The position numbers were made by a program. From Dehalococcoidia bacterium (lineage in GTDB: Bacteria; Chloroflexota; Dehalococcoidia; UBA2979), in the NCBI GenBank assembly GCA_965200555.1, contig OZ241365.1, forward strand, positions 1,832,442 to 1,896,441: a DNA stretch of 64,000 nt, written 5' to 3'. Positions 24,001 through 36,000 of the stretch are shown here, piece after piece (the first letter of the stretch is position 1; each line of letters starts with the position of its first letter).

Positions 24001-27000
24001 CTCAACTCGCTCAACCCCTACCGCATCGAGGGCCAGAAGACGGCCGCCTTCGAGATCGTCGACGAACTCGGCGACGCGCCCGACGTGCTCTCCGTCCCCG
24101 TCGGCAACGCCGGCAACATCACCGCCTACTGGGCCGGCTTCACCGAGTACCGCCGGCGCGAACGCGCCTCCTCGCGGCCGCGGATGTGGGGGTTCCAGGC
24201 CGAGGGCGCCGCCCCCCTCGTGCGCGGCGCGCCCGTCGCCGAGCCGGAGACGGTGGCGACGGCGATCCGCATCGGCGACCCGGCCTCGTGGCGCGGGGCG
24301 ATCGCCGCGCGCGACGAGTCCGGCGGCGCCATCGGCGCCGTCTCCGACGCCGCCATCCTCGAGGCCTACGGACGCCTCGCCGCCGACGAGGGCGTGTTCT
24401 GCGAGCCGGCCTCGGCGGCCTCGGTGGCCGGCCTGTTCGCGCGCGTCCGCGCGGGCGAGTCGCTGGCCGGCCTGACGGCGGTGTGCGTGATCACCGGCTC
24501 CGGCCTCAAGGACCCGGAGACCGCGCTCGGCATCGGCGCCGTCACCCACCGCGCCCCCGCCGATCCCGCCGCCGTCGCCGCCGCCCTCGGCTGGCGCGCC
24601 CCCTGACGCCCGCGCCGCGGCGTTGATATGCTGCGCCGCGCCGGAACGAGCGGCGGGGCCGGAACGCGGTTGGCCACGTACCCGAACAAGGACGCGCTGA
24701 ACGAGGCGCTCGACGTCTACGTCGACGCCATGCGCCCGTTCGTGCACCGCGTCATGCGGGGCGTCCGCGGCATGACCGCCGCCGACGCCCTCGCCGACGC
24801 CCTCAACGACCTCGCGCGCGATCGCTTCCGCGCCGCCCTCGCCCGCGGCGAGTCGGTCGAGGGCGCCATCGACGGCAACGACTTCCCGCACATCGTCAAC
24901 CGCCGCTGGGCCGAGTTCGGCGCCGGGTTCGGGAACGACCGCTCCGTGATCAACCTGATGTGGGTGATCCGCGACGCGCGCAACCGCGCCGCCCACCGCG
25001 GCGACCGCGACGCCGACGCCTCCTACGCGCTCGCCCGCCTCACCGATGTCGCCGACGTGCTGCGCCGCATCGGACGCGCCGAGGACGCGCAGCGCGTGCT
25101 CGCCATCCGCGACGCCGTCGGGGCGGCGCCCCCGCCCGCCGGGGACGCCGCGCCGCCCGCCGTTGCCCGCGCCGGCGGACGCGCGGGCAACGGCGGACGC
25201 GCCGCCGGCCTCAAGCCTTGGCGCGAGGCCGCGAGGCCCAACGGCGACGTGATGGAGGGCACGTTCCGCGAGGCCGAGTTCGCCGCCGACCTGCAGCAGG
25301 TCCACGACGGGCGCGCCGCTTCCGAGTACGGCAACCCCGTCGCCTTCTTCGAGCGCACCTACGTCACGCCGGGGATGCGGACGCTGCTGGACAACGCGCT
25401 GCGGCGCATCGCCGGGCGCGGCGGCGACCCCGTGATCCAGGCCAAGACCGGCTTCGGCGGCGGCAAGACGCACAGCCTGATCGCGCTCTACCACCTCACC
25501 GCCCACGCCGCCGCCGTCACCGGCTCCAGCGACGACGCCCTCGCCGACGTGCGCGCGCTCGCCGCCGAGGCTGGCCTCGGCGACGGCGAGGCCGCCGCGG
25601 GCGTCGCCGTCCTCGACTGCACCTCGCTCTCCCCCACCACCCCCGCCGTCACCGGCGGCGGCGACCCCCGCAACACGCTGTGGGGCGAGATGGCCTGGCA
25701 GCTCGGCGGGCAGGAGGGCTACGACCTCGTCGGCGCCGCCGCCCGGGGGGGCACCGCGCCCGGCGGGGCGGAGCTCGACGCGCTGCTCGCCCACGCCGGC
25801 CCGTGCGTGATCCTGATCGACGAGCTGGTGGCCTACGCCCGCAACGTGCGCGAGGGCCGCGACAGCGTCTACACATTCGTCGACAACCTCACCCGCGCCG
25901 TGCGCCGCAGCGACCGCGCCGTGCTCGTCGTCACGCTGCCCGAACACGACGCCGAGGCCGGCGACGTGGCGGGGGCCGAGGCCCTCGCCGCGCTCGACGC
26001 CATCCTCGGGCGCATCGAGGCCATCTGGGAGCCGCTCGAAACAGGCGAGGCGTTCGAGGTCGTGCGCCGCCGCCTCTTCGGCGCGATCGACGAGGCCGAG
26101 CGCGACCGCACCTGCCGGGCCTTCGCCGACATGTACCGCCGCGGCGCGCGCGACTACCCCCCGCACGCCCGCGAGCAGCGCTACCTCGAGCGCATGAAGC
26201 AGTGCTACCCGATCCACCCCGAGATCTTCGACCGCCTCTACGAAAGCTGGTCTTCGATCCCGCGCTTCCAGCGCACGCGGCAGGTGCTGCGGATCCTCGC
26301 CAACTGCGTCAGCCGCCTCTACTCGCGTGGCGACGCCGCGCCGCTGATCCTGCCGGGGCACCTGCCCCTCGGCGACCCCGCCGTCGGCGGCGAGTTCCTG
26401 CCGCTGCTCGACGGCCAATGGCACCCCGTGCTCTCCGAGGCCGACGGCGACGACTCGCGCACCGACGCCATCGACCGCGAGAACCAGCGTTTCCGCGAGA
26501 TCGGCGCCGCGCGCCGTATCGCCCGCGCCGTCTTCCTCGGCAGCGCCCCCAGCGGCGCCGTGCGCGGCATCGACGCCCGCGCCGTCCGCCTCGCCGCCGT
26601 CGAGCCCGGCCACGGCGTCGCCGCCTACAACGAGGCCCTCGCCCGCATGAGCGGCAACCTCTACTACCTCTACGACGACGGCGTGCGCTACTGGTTCCAC
26701 GCCGAGGAGAACCTCAACAAGGTCGCCGCCGACCGCATCGGCGAGATCGCCGACCGCGATGTCGTCGCCGCCGTCGAGGCCGAACTGCGCGAGGCCGTCG
26801 GCCGCCGCGCCGACGCCGTCGTCTGCCCCCCCGACTCCTCCGCCGTCCCCGACGACGGCGCGCTGCGCCTCGTCGTGCTGCCGCCCTCCGCCCCGCTCCC
26901 CAGCCGCGCGTCCGAGGCCGACGAGGCGGACGCGGCGGCGCAGGGGATGCTGGCGCAGCGCGGCGACGCCCCCCGCGTGCACCGCAACGCGCTGCTCTTC

Positions 27001-33000: not shown

Positions 33001-36000
33001 CGCGCTGTGGCTGCCCTCGGCGGCGCTGCCGGGCGAGCGCGAGTGCCTGTACGTGGGCAAGTCGGAGTCGTGCGTGCGGCGGCGTCTGCTCGATCACCTC
33101 GGCGCGGAGCCGAACCCGTGGCTGCGGCGGGCGCTGCGCGACCTCGGCGGGCTGGCGGAGTTCAGCGTGGGGTGGACGGAGAGCGCGGAGGAGACGGACG
33201 CCCTCGAGACGTCGGTGATCCGCGCGTGGCGGCCTCCGGCGAACCGCAACAAGCGCTGACGGCGCTCCCCCCTCGCGCGCCCGTCGGCGCGCCGTGCCGC
33301 TGGGGCGCGGGGGCGGTACACTCGGCGCATGACCGCCGTCGCCGCCGCGCCGACCGCCGCGCCCGCGCGCTCCGGGGCCGCGGGCCTCGCCGCGCTCGTG
33401 CGCGAGGCGAGCCGCGGCCTGGCGTCGGCGCCGGGCGATCGCAAGGACGCCGCGCTGGAGGCGGTCGCCGCCGCGCTGGAGGCGGAGACGGACGCGATCC
33501 TCGCGGTCAACGCGGCGGAGCGGGAGCGCGCGCGCGGGCGCGGGCTGGGCGACGCCTTCCTCGACCGCATGACGCTGACGCCGGAGCGCGTCGCCGCGAT
33601 GGCGCGCGACGTGCGCGCGGTGGCGGCGCTGCCCGACCCCGTGGGCGAGATCGAGGGGGAGACGACGCGGCCCAACGGGCTGCAGATCGGGCGGATGCGC
33701 GTGCCCCTCGGCGTGATCGGGGCGGTCTACGAGTCGCGGCCCAACGTCACGGTGGACATCGCCGCGGTCTGCCTCAAGGCTGGCAACGGCGTGCTGCTGC
33801 GCTCGGGCAGCGACGCGCACGCGACCTCGGGCGCGCTGGCGGCGATCCTGCGGCGCGAGACCGAGGCGGCCGGCCTGCCCGCCCACAGCGTGGGGTTCGT
33901 CGAGTCCACCGACCGCGCCGAGGTGGGAGCGATGCTGCGGGCGGCGGAGAGCATCGACCTGATGGTGCCGCGCGGCGGCGCCGACCTCATCCGCCGCGTC
34001 CGCGACGAGGCGGCGATGCCCGTCGTGGCGGGCGGCGTGGGGGTCTGCCACACCTACGTCGACGCCGGCGCGGACCCGGCGATGGCGGAGCGGATCGCGG
34101 TCAACGCCAAGACGCAGCGGCCCTCGGTCTGCAACGCGATGGACACGCTGCTGGTGCACGCCGAGGTCGCCGCGGCGTTCGTGCCGCGCGCGGCGCGCGC
34201 CCTCGGCGAGCGCGGCGTGACCCTCCACGCGGACGAGCGCGCGGCGGCGCTGGCCGGCGGCGGCGCGCCGACGGCGCCCGTGGCGCCCGGCGACTACGAC
34301 CGCGAGTGGCTGTCGCTCGACTGCTCGGTGCGCGTGGTGGACTCGCTCGACGAGGCGCTGGGGCACATCCGCGAGCACGGGAGCGGCCACTCGGAGGCGA
34401 TCGTGACGGACTCCTGGGCCGCGGCGCGGCGCTTCCAGCTGGAGGTGGACGCGGCGGCGGTGTTCGTCAACGCCTCGACCCACTTCCACGACGGCGCGCA
34501 GTTCGGCCTCGGCTGCGAGGTCGGCATCTCGACGCAGAAGATGCACGCGCGCGGGCCGCTCGGCCTGCGCGAACTCACCTCGTACAAGTGGGTCGTGCTC
34601 GGCGCCGGACAGGTGCGGGAGTAGCCGCCCGCGCGGCGGCGGGAACGGCGAGGAGGACAGCATGGCCGGCTACCGCTTCGCCCGCGAGGCGCGCACCCCC
34701 CACTCCGAGGTCTACGCCATCGACGACGGCGAGCACGCGGTGGGCCGCGTCGACGTCCACTACACGGGCGCGGCGGCGCACGCCACGCTCGTCGTCCACG
34801 CCACCCTCGGCGAGGACCAGGTCCACGACCTGCTGGAGGCGATCGACGACCAGATCGTGACCACCGCCGACCCCTACCGCGAGGACCTCGTCGTCACCGT
34901 CTGGCGCGGCGAGGAGCTCGGCGTCTTCGCCGACGACGACGGCGCGGGCGGCGCCGGCGACGACGGCGGCGAGGACGAGGACGGCGACGGCGGGGACGAG
35001 CCCGCCGGGGGCCGGTAGCCCGCGCCGATCGCGATGCCCGGACTGCCCGGCCCCGACCGCATCGGGGCCGTCCTCTTCGACCTCGACGACACGCTGGTGG
35101 ACGTGCGGGGGGCGTGGCGCGCGAGCTTCGCGGAGGCGATCGCGCCGATCCGCGCCGCGACGCCCTCGCTGCGCGCGCTCGGCGCGCCGGAGGCGATCTA
35201 CGACGGCGCCTTCCGCCGCTACGCCGAGGAGGCGCACGCCGCCGCCGGCGGCGGCGAGTGGGAGGAGCGCTTCACGACCGGGGCGTTCGCGCGCCTGCTC
35301 GCCGAGGGCGGGCGGCCCGACCCGGCGCTGGCCGCGCGCCTCGCCGACGGCTACCGCGCCGCCGTGCCCGGCCGCATCGCGCTCTACCCGGACGCCCTCG
35401 CGACGCTCGACGCGGTGGGGGCGCGCTGGCCGCTGGCGCTCGTCACCAACGGCCCGCCGCACCTGCAGCGCCCGACGATCGAGCGCTTCGGCCTCGAGCG
35501 CCGCTTCGCCGCCGTCGTCGTCTCGGGCGAGGCGGGGGTGCGGAAGCCCGACCCCGCGATCTTCGCGATCGCCCTCGGCGCGCTCGGCGTGGCGCCGGGG
35601 GCGGCGGTCCACGCCGGCGACAACCCTCGCGACGACGTGGCGGGGGCGATCGCCGCCGGCCTGTACGCGATCCTCGTGGACCGCGGGGGCTGGCCGGCGC
35701 CCGCGGCCGGCGCGCCCGCGCCGCACGCCGAGGTGCGCGCGCTCGGCGAGCTGCCGGGGCTGCTGGGGATCGGGTAGGCGGCGTCAGCCCTGCGCGGCGA
35801 GCGCGCGCTGGCTCTCGCGGTCGAGCCAGCCGAAGAGGAAGGGACGCCACTCGCGGTAGCGGGCGAGGTGGTGGGCGAAGCTCTGGGCGGCGGTGAGGCG
35901 TGGGCGCACCGGCTCGCGCAGCAGCCGCATCCGCGCCTCGCCGGGGGTGCGGCCGCCCTTGCGGTGGTTGCAGGCGCGGCAGGCCGTCACGAGGTTCTCC

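Follow-up and report, generated by a model that had tools for sequence, protein, structure and literature searches.

A predicted GIY-YIG nuclease marks an apparently undescribed helicase-less branch of the Hma (DUF499-centred BREX-related) family in a Dehalococcoidia genome

The closest described relatives of the locus analyzed here are the Hma systems, a name given by Payne (2021, as cited in PMC11232893) and replaced in a 2026 survey by "Type-1 DUF499-centred BREX-Related system" (BR; Rakesh & Krishnan, NAR 2026, PMC12839542). Our locus lies in a 64,000-nucleotide (nt) stretch of a Dehalococcoidia bacterium (assembly GCA_965200555.1, contig OZ241365.1, positions 1,832,442 to 1,896,441 of the forward strand). 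This whole stretch is called the window, and coordinates count from its first nucleotide. The locus holds genes for a HEPN-DUF499 ATPase (hmaC), a DUF1156 methylase (hmaB) and a small predicted GIY-YIG nuclease. The neighbourhood of DUF499, methylase and helicase genes was noted already in 2013 and 2020, and the defining components of all three BR types are an ATPase, a methylase and a Swi2/Snf2 helicase (PMC12839542). A PD-(D/E)XK nuclease fused to the helicase is regarded as the primary effector, and across the BR types the effector is either a helicase-fused nuclease or PglZ. The HEPN fusion was present in 1370 of 2446 surveyed taxa. Accessory nucleases are common beside BR and BREX loci; the seven nuclease superfamilies listed for these loci do not include GIY-YIG, a term missing from the main text of the survey (PMC12839542). 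In canonical Hma, the helicase component HmaA alone protects E. coli against T4, and the hma operon of Halomonas carries inserted cargo defence genes (PMC11232893).

The three core genes of the window are:

24628..28002, plus strand: hmaC, encoding a putative Swt1-like HEPN domain and a DUF499 ORC/Cdc6-like AAA+ ATPase; 1124 amino acids (aa), intact.
30042..32882, plus strand: hmaB, homologue of DUF1156 N6-adenine DNA methyltransferases; pseudogene of 946 codons with one in-frame TAG.
32879..33259, plus strand: predicted stand-alone GIY-YIG nuclease; 126 aa, GTG start.

The block is a member of the Hma (Type-1 BR) family, because the products of both larger genes match the corresponding PADLOC profiles. 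The 24628-28002 product matches HmaC (PDLC00662) over aa 195-1115 with an E-value of 7e-247, and Pfam DUF499 (PF04465) with an E-value of 1e-27. The two halves of the hmaB product match HmaB (PDLC00660) at positions 8-441 (E 3e-133) and 471-961 (E 1e-140), and Pfam DUF1156 (PF06634) is matched with an E-value of 1.5e-29. Membership in the narrower NCBIfam anti-phage-associated equivalogs was rejected, as the scores stay far under the cut-offs and indicate relatedness only: HmaC reaches 141 bits with the DUF499 model (NF042962, cut-off 1200), and the hmaB product 74 and 55 bits with the DUF1156 model (NF042963, cut-off 1000).

HmaC carries RNRAAH (the Rx4H motif of HEPN domains) at aa 118, GFGGGKTHS (Walker A) at aa 275 and ILIDELVAY (Walker B) at aa 395. 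The HEPN domain (about aa 27-149) lies within the first 150 residues, which score 24.7 bits with Pfam HEPN_Swt1, slightly under the cut-off of 27.5. A HEPN_Swt1 match at E ≤ 1e-5 is on record for this N-terminal domain in clade homologues (L083 and L089), and 11 of the 12 GIY-YIG-bearing genome loci conserve it at 30-50% identity. In HmaB, RHGHPSTLHLWWARRP stands at aa 38, DPFCGGGS (motif I) at aa 149 and DPPY (motif IV) at aa 552. A preliminary description, made from the sequence alone, had given these gene coordinates and motifs, and all of them are present; its DUF499 and DUF1156 domain calls agree with the profile matches, and its HEPN call agrees with the Rx4H motif and the sub-threshold score. 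It had also placed motif I before motif IV, which is correct, but at a spacing of about 380 residues, whereas about 400 aa were measured. The linkage of DUF499 and DUF1156 genes that it mentioned is real and has been published as Hma or Type-1 BR (PMC11232893, PMC12839542); the phrase "still uncharacterised" does not fit a family in which HmaA alone has been found to protect against T4 (PMC11232893).

A scan of species-representative genomes with HmaC returned 80 loci, which were searched locally with tblastn. Twelve loci from Chloroflexota metagenome-assembled genomes (L001-L011 and L013), with HmaC 41-56% and HmaB 52-73% identical to the window proteins, share the window order of HmaC, HmaB and a small GIY-YIG protein; 56% is the identity of the nearest HmaC relative in this set of genomes. 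The 67 other HmaC loci (L012, L014-L080), at 33-39% identity in HmaC, gave no GIY-YIG match. Where HmaB is visible in them it lies upstream of HmaC, and L012 is an orphan HmaC. Further loci were anchored on the nuclease: seven homologues with 46-69% identity, one 100%-identical copy, and the only further locus that a metagenome scan with the GIY-YIG alignment produced. Plasmid sequences searched by tblastn with the GIY-YIG protein yielded no match. Every extra homologue looked up lies 3' of a DUF1156 gene, which in turn follows a DUF499 gene in all but L088, a contig whose 5' end is cut inside hmaC. The order DUF499, optional cargo, DUF1156, GIY-YIG thus holds for L001-L011, L013, L081, L083-L087, L089, L090 and, as far as its contig extends, L088.

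The nuclease gene follows hmaB in 21 of the 21 clade loci with a readable position and in none of the 67 others. In an all-against-all clustering of open reading frames (ORFs), only HmaC, HmaB and the GIY-YIG protein were conserved within 10 kb on either side of the clade loci. A neighbour-joining tree of 89 HmaC core regions gathered the 21 with this architecture in one clade without intruders. The gene-neighbourhood comparison proposed in the preliminary description places the DUF499 and DUF1156 genes together throughout the clade, and the nuclease, which had been presented as new to this locus, is the conserved third gene of a whole monophyletic group.

The gene found upstream of HmaB in canonical loci encodes a protein of about 1180 aa, HmaA. 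In tblastn searches with eight canonical HmaA proteins, HmaA was found in 39 of the 43 canonical loci having at least 7 kb of upstream sequence, but in none of 23 clade loci and nowhere in the 64-kb window. A 31%-identical Snf2 fragment at the edge of L005 is unrelated. Pfam scans of the large ORFs of the window detected no SNF2 or Helicase_C domains. Presence of the GIY-YIG gene is mutually exclusive with HmaA. The lack of the third core gene and primary effector is the main anomaly of the locus, and the preliminary description had missed it. Because we found no paper in the library searched that links DUF499 or DUF1156 with GIY-YIG or describes a helicase-less branch, and because GIY-YIG is absent from the list in the 2026 survey, the locus appears, on comparative sequence evidence, to belong to an undescribed helicase-less branch of the known Hma family. 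One clade locus, L002, has a second, distant DUF499-like ORF (18069-21206, 25% identity) and the start of a DUF1156-like gene (22845-23462, 36%) directly downstream of its GIY-YIG gene, which gives two Hma-like modules in tandem.

The gene for the 126-aa protein overlaps the methylase gene: the TGA of hmaB (32880-32882) shares a GTGA sequence with the GTG start at 32879, as the preliminary description had noted. In the window, L081, L085, L087, L088 and L089 the two genes either overlap in this way or lie no more than 27 nt apart, whereas in L083, L084 and L090 the two genes are separated by 124-244 nt or by a Fic gene. The GC content at third codon positions (GC3), which we used to tell real genes from shadow ORFs, is 0.97 for the nuclease ORF. 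The Pfam GIY-YIG score of the window protein is about 17 bits, below the curated cut-off, and NCBIfam gave weak matches to Cho. The family consists of 108 homologue clusters of 89-144 aa, and residues Y41, Y58, G60, R67, R69, H73, E110 and N122 are invariant across 54 sequences, whose identity to the window protein is 43-83%. An AlphaFold2 model (predicted local distance difference test score 89.7) superposes on the N-terminal GIY-YIG domain of UvrC with probability 1.0 and a TM score of 0.77, and R.Eco29kI is the next structural match. Judged by its catalytic residues and the alpha/beta fold of the model, the protein is a member of the GIY-YIG superfamily, as had been called earlier, and it looks active. 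It consists of a bare catalytic domain without a recognizable DNA-binding module.

The window does not encode an intact HmaB enzyme. An in-frame TAG at 31365-31367 splits hmaB into parts of 441 and 504 aa, with motif I in the first part and motif IV in the second. Since the TAG separates these catalytic motifs, the window copy is probably non-functional or decaying. The other core genes of the island are intact, with GC3 values of 0.9-0.97. The operon has the following sequence features:

25157..25196: palindrome in the HEPN-ATPase linker of hmaC; perfect 16-nt stem.
31090..32000, plus strand: mosaic segment of hmaB with lower GC content (63%).
31224..31256: hairpin H1 in hmaB; perfect 15-nt stem and 3-nt loop, in frame.
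31333..31396: palindrome H2 in hmaB; perfect, 31+31 nt with a 2-nt centre, carrying the TAG.
31468..31498: hairpin H3 in hmaB; 13 Watson-Crick pairs plus a terminal G-T, loop TTT, in frame.

The TAG sits at the centre of H2, which measures 64 nt in total and has a fold energy of -79.3 kcal/mol. In the protein alignment, H2 adds four codons relative to all homologues, and some ten codons of one arm are rewritten; the corresponding stems in homologues measure just 4-10 nt. An Rfam scan of the 24-34 kb region gave a single match, a sub-threshold microRNA model on both strands of H2, which reflects nothing beyond the long hairpin.

A close relative is L081, a 21-kb metagenome contig with an intact 943-aa HmaB and a GIY-YIG protein identical to that of the window. 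The two sequences are 93-97% identical across hmaC (98% at the amino acid level, the L081 copy being intact) and again over a stretch that begins 18 nt before hmaB and extends to about 36.4 kb. Within hmaB, identity to L081 falls to 49-77% in the centre (about 31090-32000), between flanks at 95-97%. Because of this low identity and because the protein encoded by the central segment is nearer to the L085 and L001 alleles, segment 31090-32000 is, by sequence comparison, mosaic.

The palindrome in the hmaC linker is only an imperfect quasi-palindrome in L081, a 97%-identical sibling. The two versions differ by five changes, including a 3-nt indel, that are clustered in one arm and in the window make this arm complementary to the other. 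Template switching at quasi-palindromes classically leaves such a signature, a cluster of changes by which one arm comes to complement its partner. H2 most likely arose by such hairpin-templated switching. In view of this signature and of the second converted palindrome in hmaC, we are fairly confident that the nonsense allele is real, and an inactive window copy is likely. The converse case also occurs: L081 has a perfect palindrome with a 12-nt stem at 3534-3559, and the corresponding window positions 25563-25588 differ by two single bases, one of which breaks an arm. Palindromes of the operon thus vary between near-identical strains.

Decay is visible elsewhere in the clade. A DDE transposase gene of an insertion sequence splits hmaB in L089 (7574-8899), and hmaC of L088 (1-1900) is frameshifted and broken into several frames. 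Both loci keep a full-length GIY-YIG gene despite the damaged partners, which fits a nuclease that is harmless without them.

Taken as a whole, the block likely represents, in chromosomal copy, a branch of the Hma/BR family that has three genes and no helicase, and that the locus is a defence system of this family we regard as very probable. For the nuclease, the strict co-occurrence, the mutual exclusion with HmaA, the operon coupling and the intact active site lead us to favour, with some reserve, a role as the DNA effector that replaces HmaA. In the mechanism that we propose, HmaB would methylate host DNA. Together with HmaB, HmaC would recognize unmodified incoming DNA; as an ORC/Cdc6-like ATPase, it would bind DNA and RNA through sensor domains. 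The GIY-YIG protein, which has no DNA-recognition domain of its own, would be recruited as a nicking or cutting effector in place of the Snf2-PD-(D/E)XK protein HmaA. In line with the model published for this family, the predicted HEPN RNase of HmaC could act as a second, abortive-infection arm.

Several observations weigh against this interpretation. In Halomonas, over-expression of HmaB left T4 sensitivity unchanged, and the methylase role is unproven even for the canonical system (PMC11232893). The window GIY-YIG and HEPN domains both score under the curated Pfam cut-offs, and position, conservation and analogy are the sole grounds for the effector role of the nuclease. A helicase encoded elsewhere could act in trans, since the regions covered are the 64-kb window and, in the relatives, flanks of up to 10 kb on each side. 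The TAG could be an assembly artefact. Moreover, a classical restriction-modification pair with a broken methylase and an intact nuclease should be lethal. Tolerance of the broken methylase requires the assumption that HmaB is needed for restriction too, like PglX, which is probably needed for restriction in BREX.

Three rival explanations were considered. If the TAG and its palindrome were errors of assembly or polishing, the system would be intact and an active defence in the organism. We consider this unlikely, even though L081, at 93-97% identity, has an uninterrupted 943-aa HmaB, all other core genes are intact with high GC3, and no second assembly covering the TAG was found; exact-sequence look-ups of HmaC and of the truncated N-terminal HmaB fragment found neither on record. 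The difference is not a single-base error but a symmetrical stretch of 64 nt with four added codons and a rewritten arm, the second clustered, palindrome-perfecting change in hmaC suggests a real mutational process, and other clade loci also have a disrupted hmaB or hmaC.

Equally improbable, in our assessment, is that the GIY-YIG protein is a selfish or accessory passenger, such as a homing-type nuclease or a repair or anti-restriction factor, with defence provided by HEPN-HmaC and HmaB or by a helicase-nuclease acting in trans. Such a passenger could look like this bare 126-aa domain without a DNA-binding module, might be separated from hmaB as in L083, L084 and L090, and would join the accessory nucleases that are common near BR and BREX loci (PMC12839542). 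It would hardly be expected in 21 of 21 readable clade loci and none of 67 others, with all 21 homologues whose context was read lying 3' of HmaB, nor to be mutually exclusive with HmaA and to keep its catalytic residues invariant over 54 sequences. Homing endonucleases, besides, usually have DNA-binding domains and interrupt host genes, which also counts against this explanation. Least probable of the three, and very unlikely in our view, is a locus without a defence role, either an epigenetic or regulatory methylase-ATPase module or a decaying remnant that is functionless in every member. Disruption is visible in 3 of about 22 loci (the window, L088 and L089), the branch is known from sequence alone, and the unproven methylase role in canonical Hma (PMC11232893) fits such a reading too. 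It is at odds with the strong homology of the locus to a family in which the helicase component is protective against T4 (PMC11232893), with its predicted HEPN and GIY-YIG nuclease domains, and with neighbours that include toxin-antitoxin modules, AAA_15/21 ATPases, NYN, Fic and restriction-modification genes. The patchy distribution across phyla, where the nearest species-representative HmaC is only 56% identical, and the full-length ORFs of most copies also argue for defence.

The hairpins inside hmaB are a further feature. The window contains nine perfect hairpins (stem at least 11 nt, loop at most 8 nt), against 0-4 in shuffled sequences, and three of them, H1, H2 and H3 (perfect part 31469-31497), lie within a 274-nt stretch of hmaB. 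H1 encodes PSTAH-L-VSGRG, has a fold energy of -34.2 kcal/mol (z -8.8) and, read on the minus strand, looks like an intrinsic terminator. L001 and L009 likewise have a perfect H1, and two positions are compensated, but the covariation of H1 lacks significance in the five sequences compared, since 65 of 500 shuffles reach the observed pairing.

H3, the most unusual element of the locus, encodes N-S-V-G-F-A-D-G-V. It recurs at the same codons as a perfect stem of 12-21 nt in 16 of 22 clade loci, usually as the sole such hairpin of a 6-8-kb operon, and is absent from canonical HmaB, where stems measure 3-6 nt. Over 19 sequences, 86.5% of the cells are paired, compared with 35-54% when the partner is slid, and 8 of 14 pairs change on both sides (25 cells); none of 500 shuffles reaches the observed pairing or covariation score. 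The covariation proceeds in whole codons, through the reverse-complement codon pairs Val/His, Ala/Gly, Leu/Gln, Met/His and Ser/Gly. In L013 a synonymous change of a Gly codon (to GGA) is matched by a change from Ala to Ser (TCC), so that pairing is kept at an amino acid cost. The loop is TTT (Phe) in 12 of the 19 sequences and the reverse complement AAA (Lys) in five, and the flanks are AAAA and TTTT. The H3 arms of L006 (14776-14806) and L004 (16198-16228) are identical, whereas one loop is TTT and the other AAA, which looks like a loop inversion across the palindrome. A scan of viral contigs for the H3 consensus gave no match. A protein-binding palindrome or methylase site was rejected as an explanation of H3, as the arm sequences vary and the pairing is kept.

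A tentative idea, which we hold to be rather doubtful, gives the in-frame hairpins of hmaB, and H3 in particular, a function as a nucleic-acid element peculiar to the helicase-less branch. H3 could serve as a bidirectional attenuator or terminator that sets the ratio of methylase to nuclease, or as a DNA hairpin or cruciform recognized by the system itself, and palindrome-templated switching at such hairpins, as in H2 with its TAG, could provide a means to turn the methylase off. Alternatively, the H3 palindrome may maintain itself by template switching, in which case H2 would be a runaway event that killed hmaB.

Between hmaC and hmaB lies a stretch of about 2 kb on the opposite strand, with the following genes:

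28011..28433, minus strand: DUF1640/CCDC90-like protein with a coiled coil and, at its C terminus, a membrane helix; ORF of 140 aa, likely start at Met9.
28488..28850, minus strand: N-terminally truncated tandem duplicate of the DUF1640 gene; 120 aa.
28875..29141, minus strand: ParE-associated (RelB/ParD-like) antitoxin, its toxin partner gone; 88 aa.
29153..29809, minus strand: orphan gene, the first of an orphan-antitoxin-(toxin) cassette; 218 aa.

This stretch is regarded as hitch-hiking, strain-variable cargo outside the core system, consisting of a toxinless ParDE-type cassette, an orphan gene and a duplicated DUF1640 membrane protein. Its existence had been recognized in the preliminary description, but its novelty does not stand, since inserted cargo has been published for Halomonas (PMC11232893) and recurs in the clade with other contents. 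The tandem duplication noted there was likewise recovered (direct repeats D1 and D3 are 95-97% identical, and the truncated product is 90.5% identical to the 140-aa copy). The label XhlA was rejected: neither the two proteins nor 21 homologues match XhlA, PHROGs gave only weak coiled-coil matches, and 17 of 23 family members match CCDC90-like/DUF1640 (PF07798; best E 2e-17). The 140-aa protein is 77% identical to the product of a 121-aa gene at the same place in L081.

The neighbouring 88-aa gene, previously described as Unstab_antitox-like, was reassigned as a ParE-associated antitoxin. It gives weak NCBIfam matches to RelB antitoxins, and its product is 84% identical to that of an 85-aa gene preceding ParE in L091. 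A tblastn search of the window detected no ParE remnant (E above 1), and the truncated DUF1640 duplicate fills the slot in which L081 and L091 have the toxin. The 218-aa orphan has no match in Pfam, PADLOC, NCBIfam or PHROGs and only three clusters among 5.8 billion proteins. The three related cassettes read as follows:

L091, between hmaB and hmaC: orphan (223 aa), antitoxin (85 aa), ParE (80 aa).
L081: antitoxin (54 aa), ParE (100 aa), DUF1640 protein.
Window: orphan (218 aa), antitoxin (88 aa), truncated DUF1640 duplicate, DUF1640 protein.

Across the clade, hmaC and hmaB stand between 0 and about 4.6 kb apart, and the contents of the interval vary by locus: AAA_15/AAA_21 ATPase pairs, NYN-domain proteins, a DUF433 gene paired with a PIN-like one, and ParDE modules. 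The Fic gene of L084 lies elsewhere, between hmaB and the GIY-YIG gene. An AAA_15/AAA_21 ATPase accompanied by a protein of about 155 aa occupies the hmaC-hmaB interval in L083 (2362-4384), L084 (3824-5860) and L090 (4950-6953), and this pair may be a separate two-gene defence module. Of about 22 clade loci, five encode an accessory protein of about 206-223 aa, whose gene sits in the hmaC-hmaB interval or else directly follows the GIY-YIG gene (L002 14390-15061, L013 13571-14242, L003 18899-19519, L005 18898-19518 and L083 6071-6691). The L083 protein has a Pfam NYN match; the remaining four belong to a single ORF family whose sequence pattern is similar.

The flanks of the block are metabolic genes, in agreement with the thrC and proA positions given earlier:

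21216-22517: homoserine dehydrogenase (hom), upstream flank of the block.
About 23560-24606: PALP enzyme, thrC-like, upstream flank adjoining hmaC.
33329-34624: aldehyde dehydrogenase, proA-like, downstream flank.

The window as a whole has a GC content of 75%. The value of about 55% reported previously for 28.9-29.9 and 31.2-31.6 kb is reached solely in single 200-nt windows, and the two intervals average 66.8% and 59.6%, respectively. Low GC, taken in the preliminary description as a mark of horizontal acquisition, is confined to the cargo and the mosaic hmaB segment of about 0.9 kb; the remainder of hmaC and hmaB has host-like GC. As for signs of mobility, the 15-45 kb part of the window has no tRNA gene, and the flanking ORFs that were scanned showed no integrase domain.

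At its left edge the island differs between close relatives. Homology to L081 sets in 72 nt before hmaC, within the final 50 nt of the thrC-like gene (window 24556-24627, L081 1-2598), and upstream of this edge L081 has a type IIG-like N6_Mtase/Eco57I gene in place of thrC. In the window, hmaC comes straight after the thrC-like gene, without thrB in between. A second strain-variable spot lies at 36423-38231 (plus strand), where the window has a gene for a protein of about 600 aa without a Pfam match. L081, otherwise 93-96% identical, has no nucleotide match there and carries a 643-aa gene (13584-15515) in a stretch flanked by an HNH endonuclease gene and a Colicin_V gene. About 23 kb downstream of the island, a second defence-type cluster encodes a McrBC-family protein (PF10117, E 7e-51) and a Schlafen AlbA_2/HATPase_c_4 protein (56220-57872, minus strand, and 60535-62250, plus strand). 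Schlafen-type RNases are frequent neighbours of BREX and BR loci (PMC12839542).

If the helicase-less branch is what it appears to be, a DUF499 ATPase and a DUF1156 methylase can work without a translocating helicase, GIY-YIG becomes the eighth nuclease superfamily in BREX/BR systems, and the locus offers a very small, three-gene model for how an ATPase-methylase pair licenses a nuclease. The covarying hairpin in hmaB and the stop codon made by a palindrome would point either to coding palindromes that maintain themselves by template switching or to a regulatory element. For the genome of the window the finding is ordinary, a probably decaying defence copy with toxin-antitoxin debris inside.

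Compared with known systems, the cargo is closest to ParDE cassettes. The window antitoxin is homologous to the L091 antitoxin encoded directly upstream of ParE, and L081 has ParE at this site as well, whereas the window lacks ParE, has the truncated DUF1640 duplicate in its slot and carries the unrelated 218-aa orphan at the head. For the nuclease, the GIY-YIG domain of UvrC and Cho is the best fold match (root-mean-square deviation 2.1-2.6 Å) with the same Y-Y-R-E-N catalytic constellation. The window protein differs from it in standing alone and having a basic, conserved N-terminal extension of about 35 aa, in lacking UvrB-binding and RNase H-like domains, and in its defence-gene context. 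Type II restriction-modification systems with GIY-YIG nucleases (R.Eco29kI, R.Hpy188I) share the succession of a methylase gene and a GIY-YIG nuclease gene. However, R.Eco29kI chains measure about 210 aa compared with the bare 126-aa domain of the window, the clade always carries a 1100-aa ATPase, and its methylase is a 940-aa multidomain protein.

BREX resembles the locus in pairing an ATPase related to DUF499 with an N6-adenine methylase. In BREX the methylase probably serves both marking and exclusion, and the same arrangement here would explain that a broken methylase is tolerated. Unlike BREX, the island and its flanking ORFs contain no PglZ, BrxA, BrxB or BrxL according to Pfam and PADLOC, and PglZ is absent from the clade loci; the window methylase is of the DUF1156 type rather than PglX, and dedicated, predicted HEPN and GIY-YIG nuclease domains are present. 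The closest system remains Hma (Type-1 BR), with clear homologues of HmaC (DUF499, often HEPN-fused) and HmaB (a DUF1156 N6-methylase with a Zn-finger insert), a predicted HEPN fusion, cargo inside the operon and a logic of methylase, ATPase and nuclease. The clade departs from it in the absence of the Snf2 helicase/PD-(D/E)XK protein HmaA and in the gene order, which is C, B, nuclease instead of the canonical A, B, C. Its HmaC proteins form a separate clade, and its conserved third gene encodes the stand-alone GIY-YIG protein.

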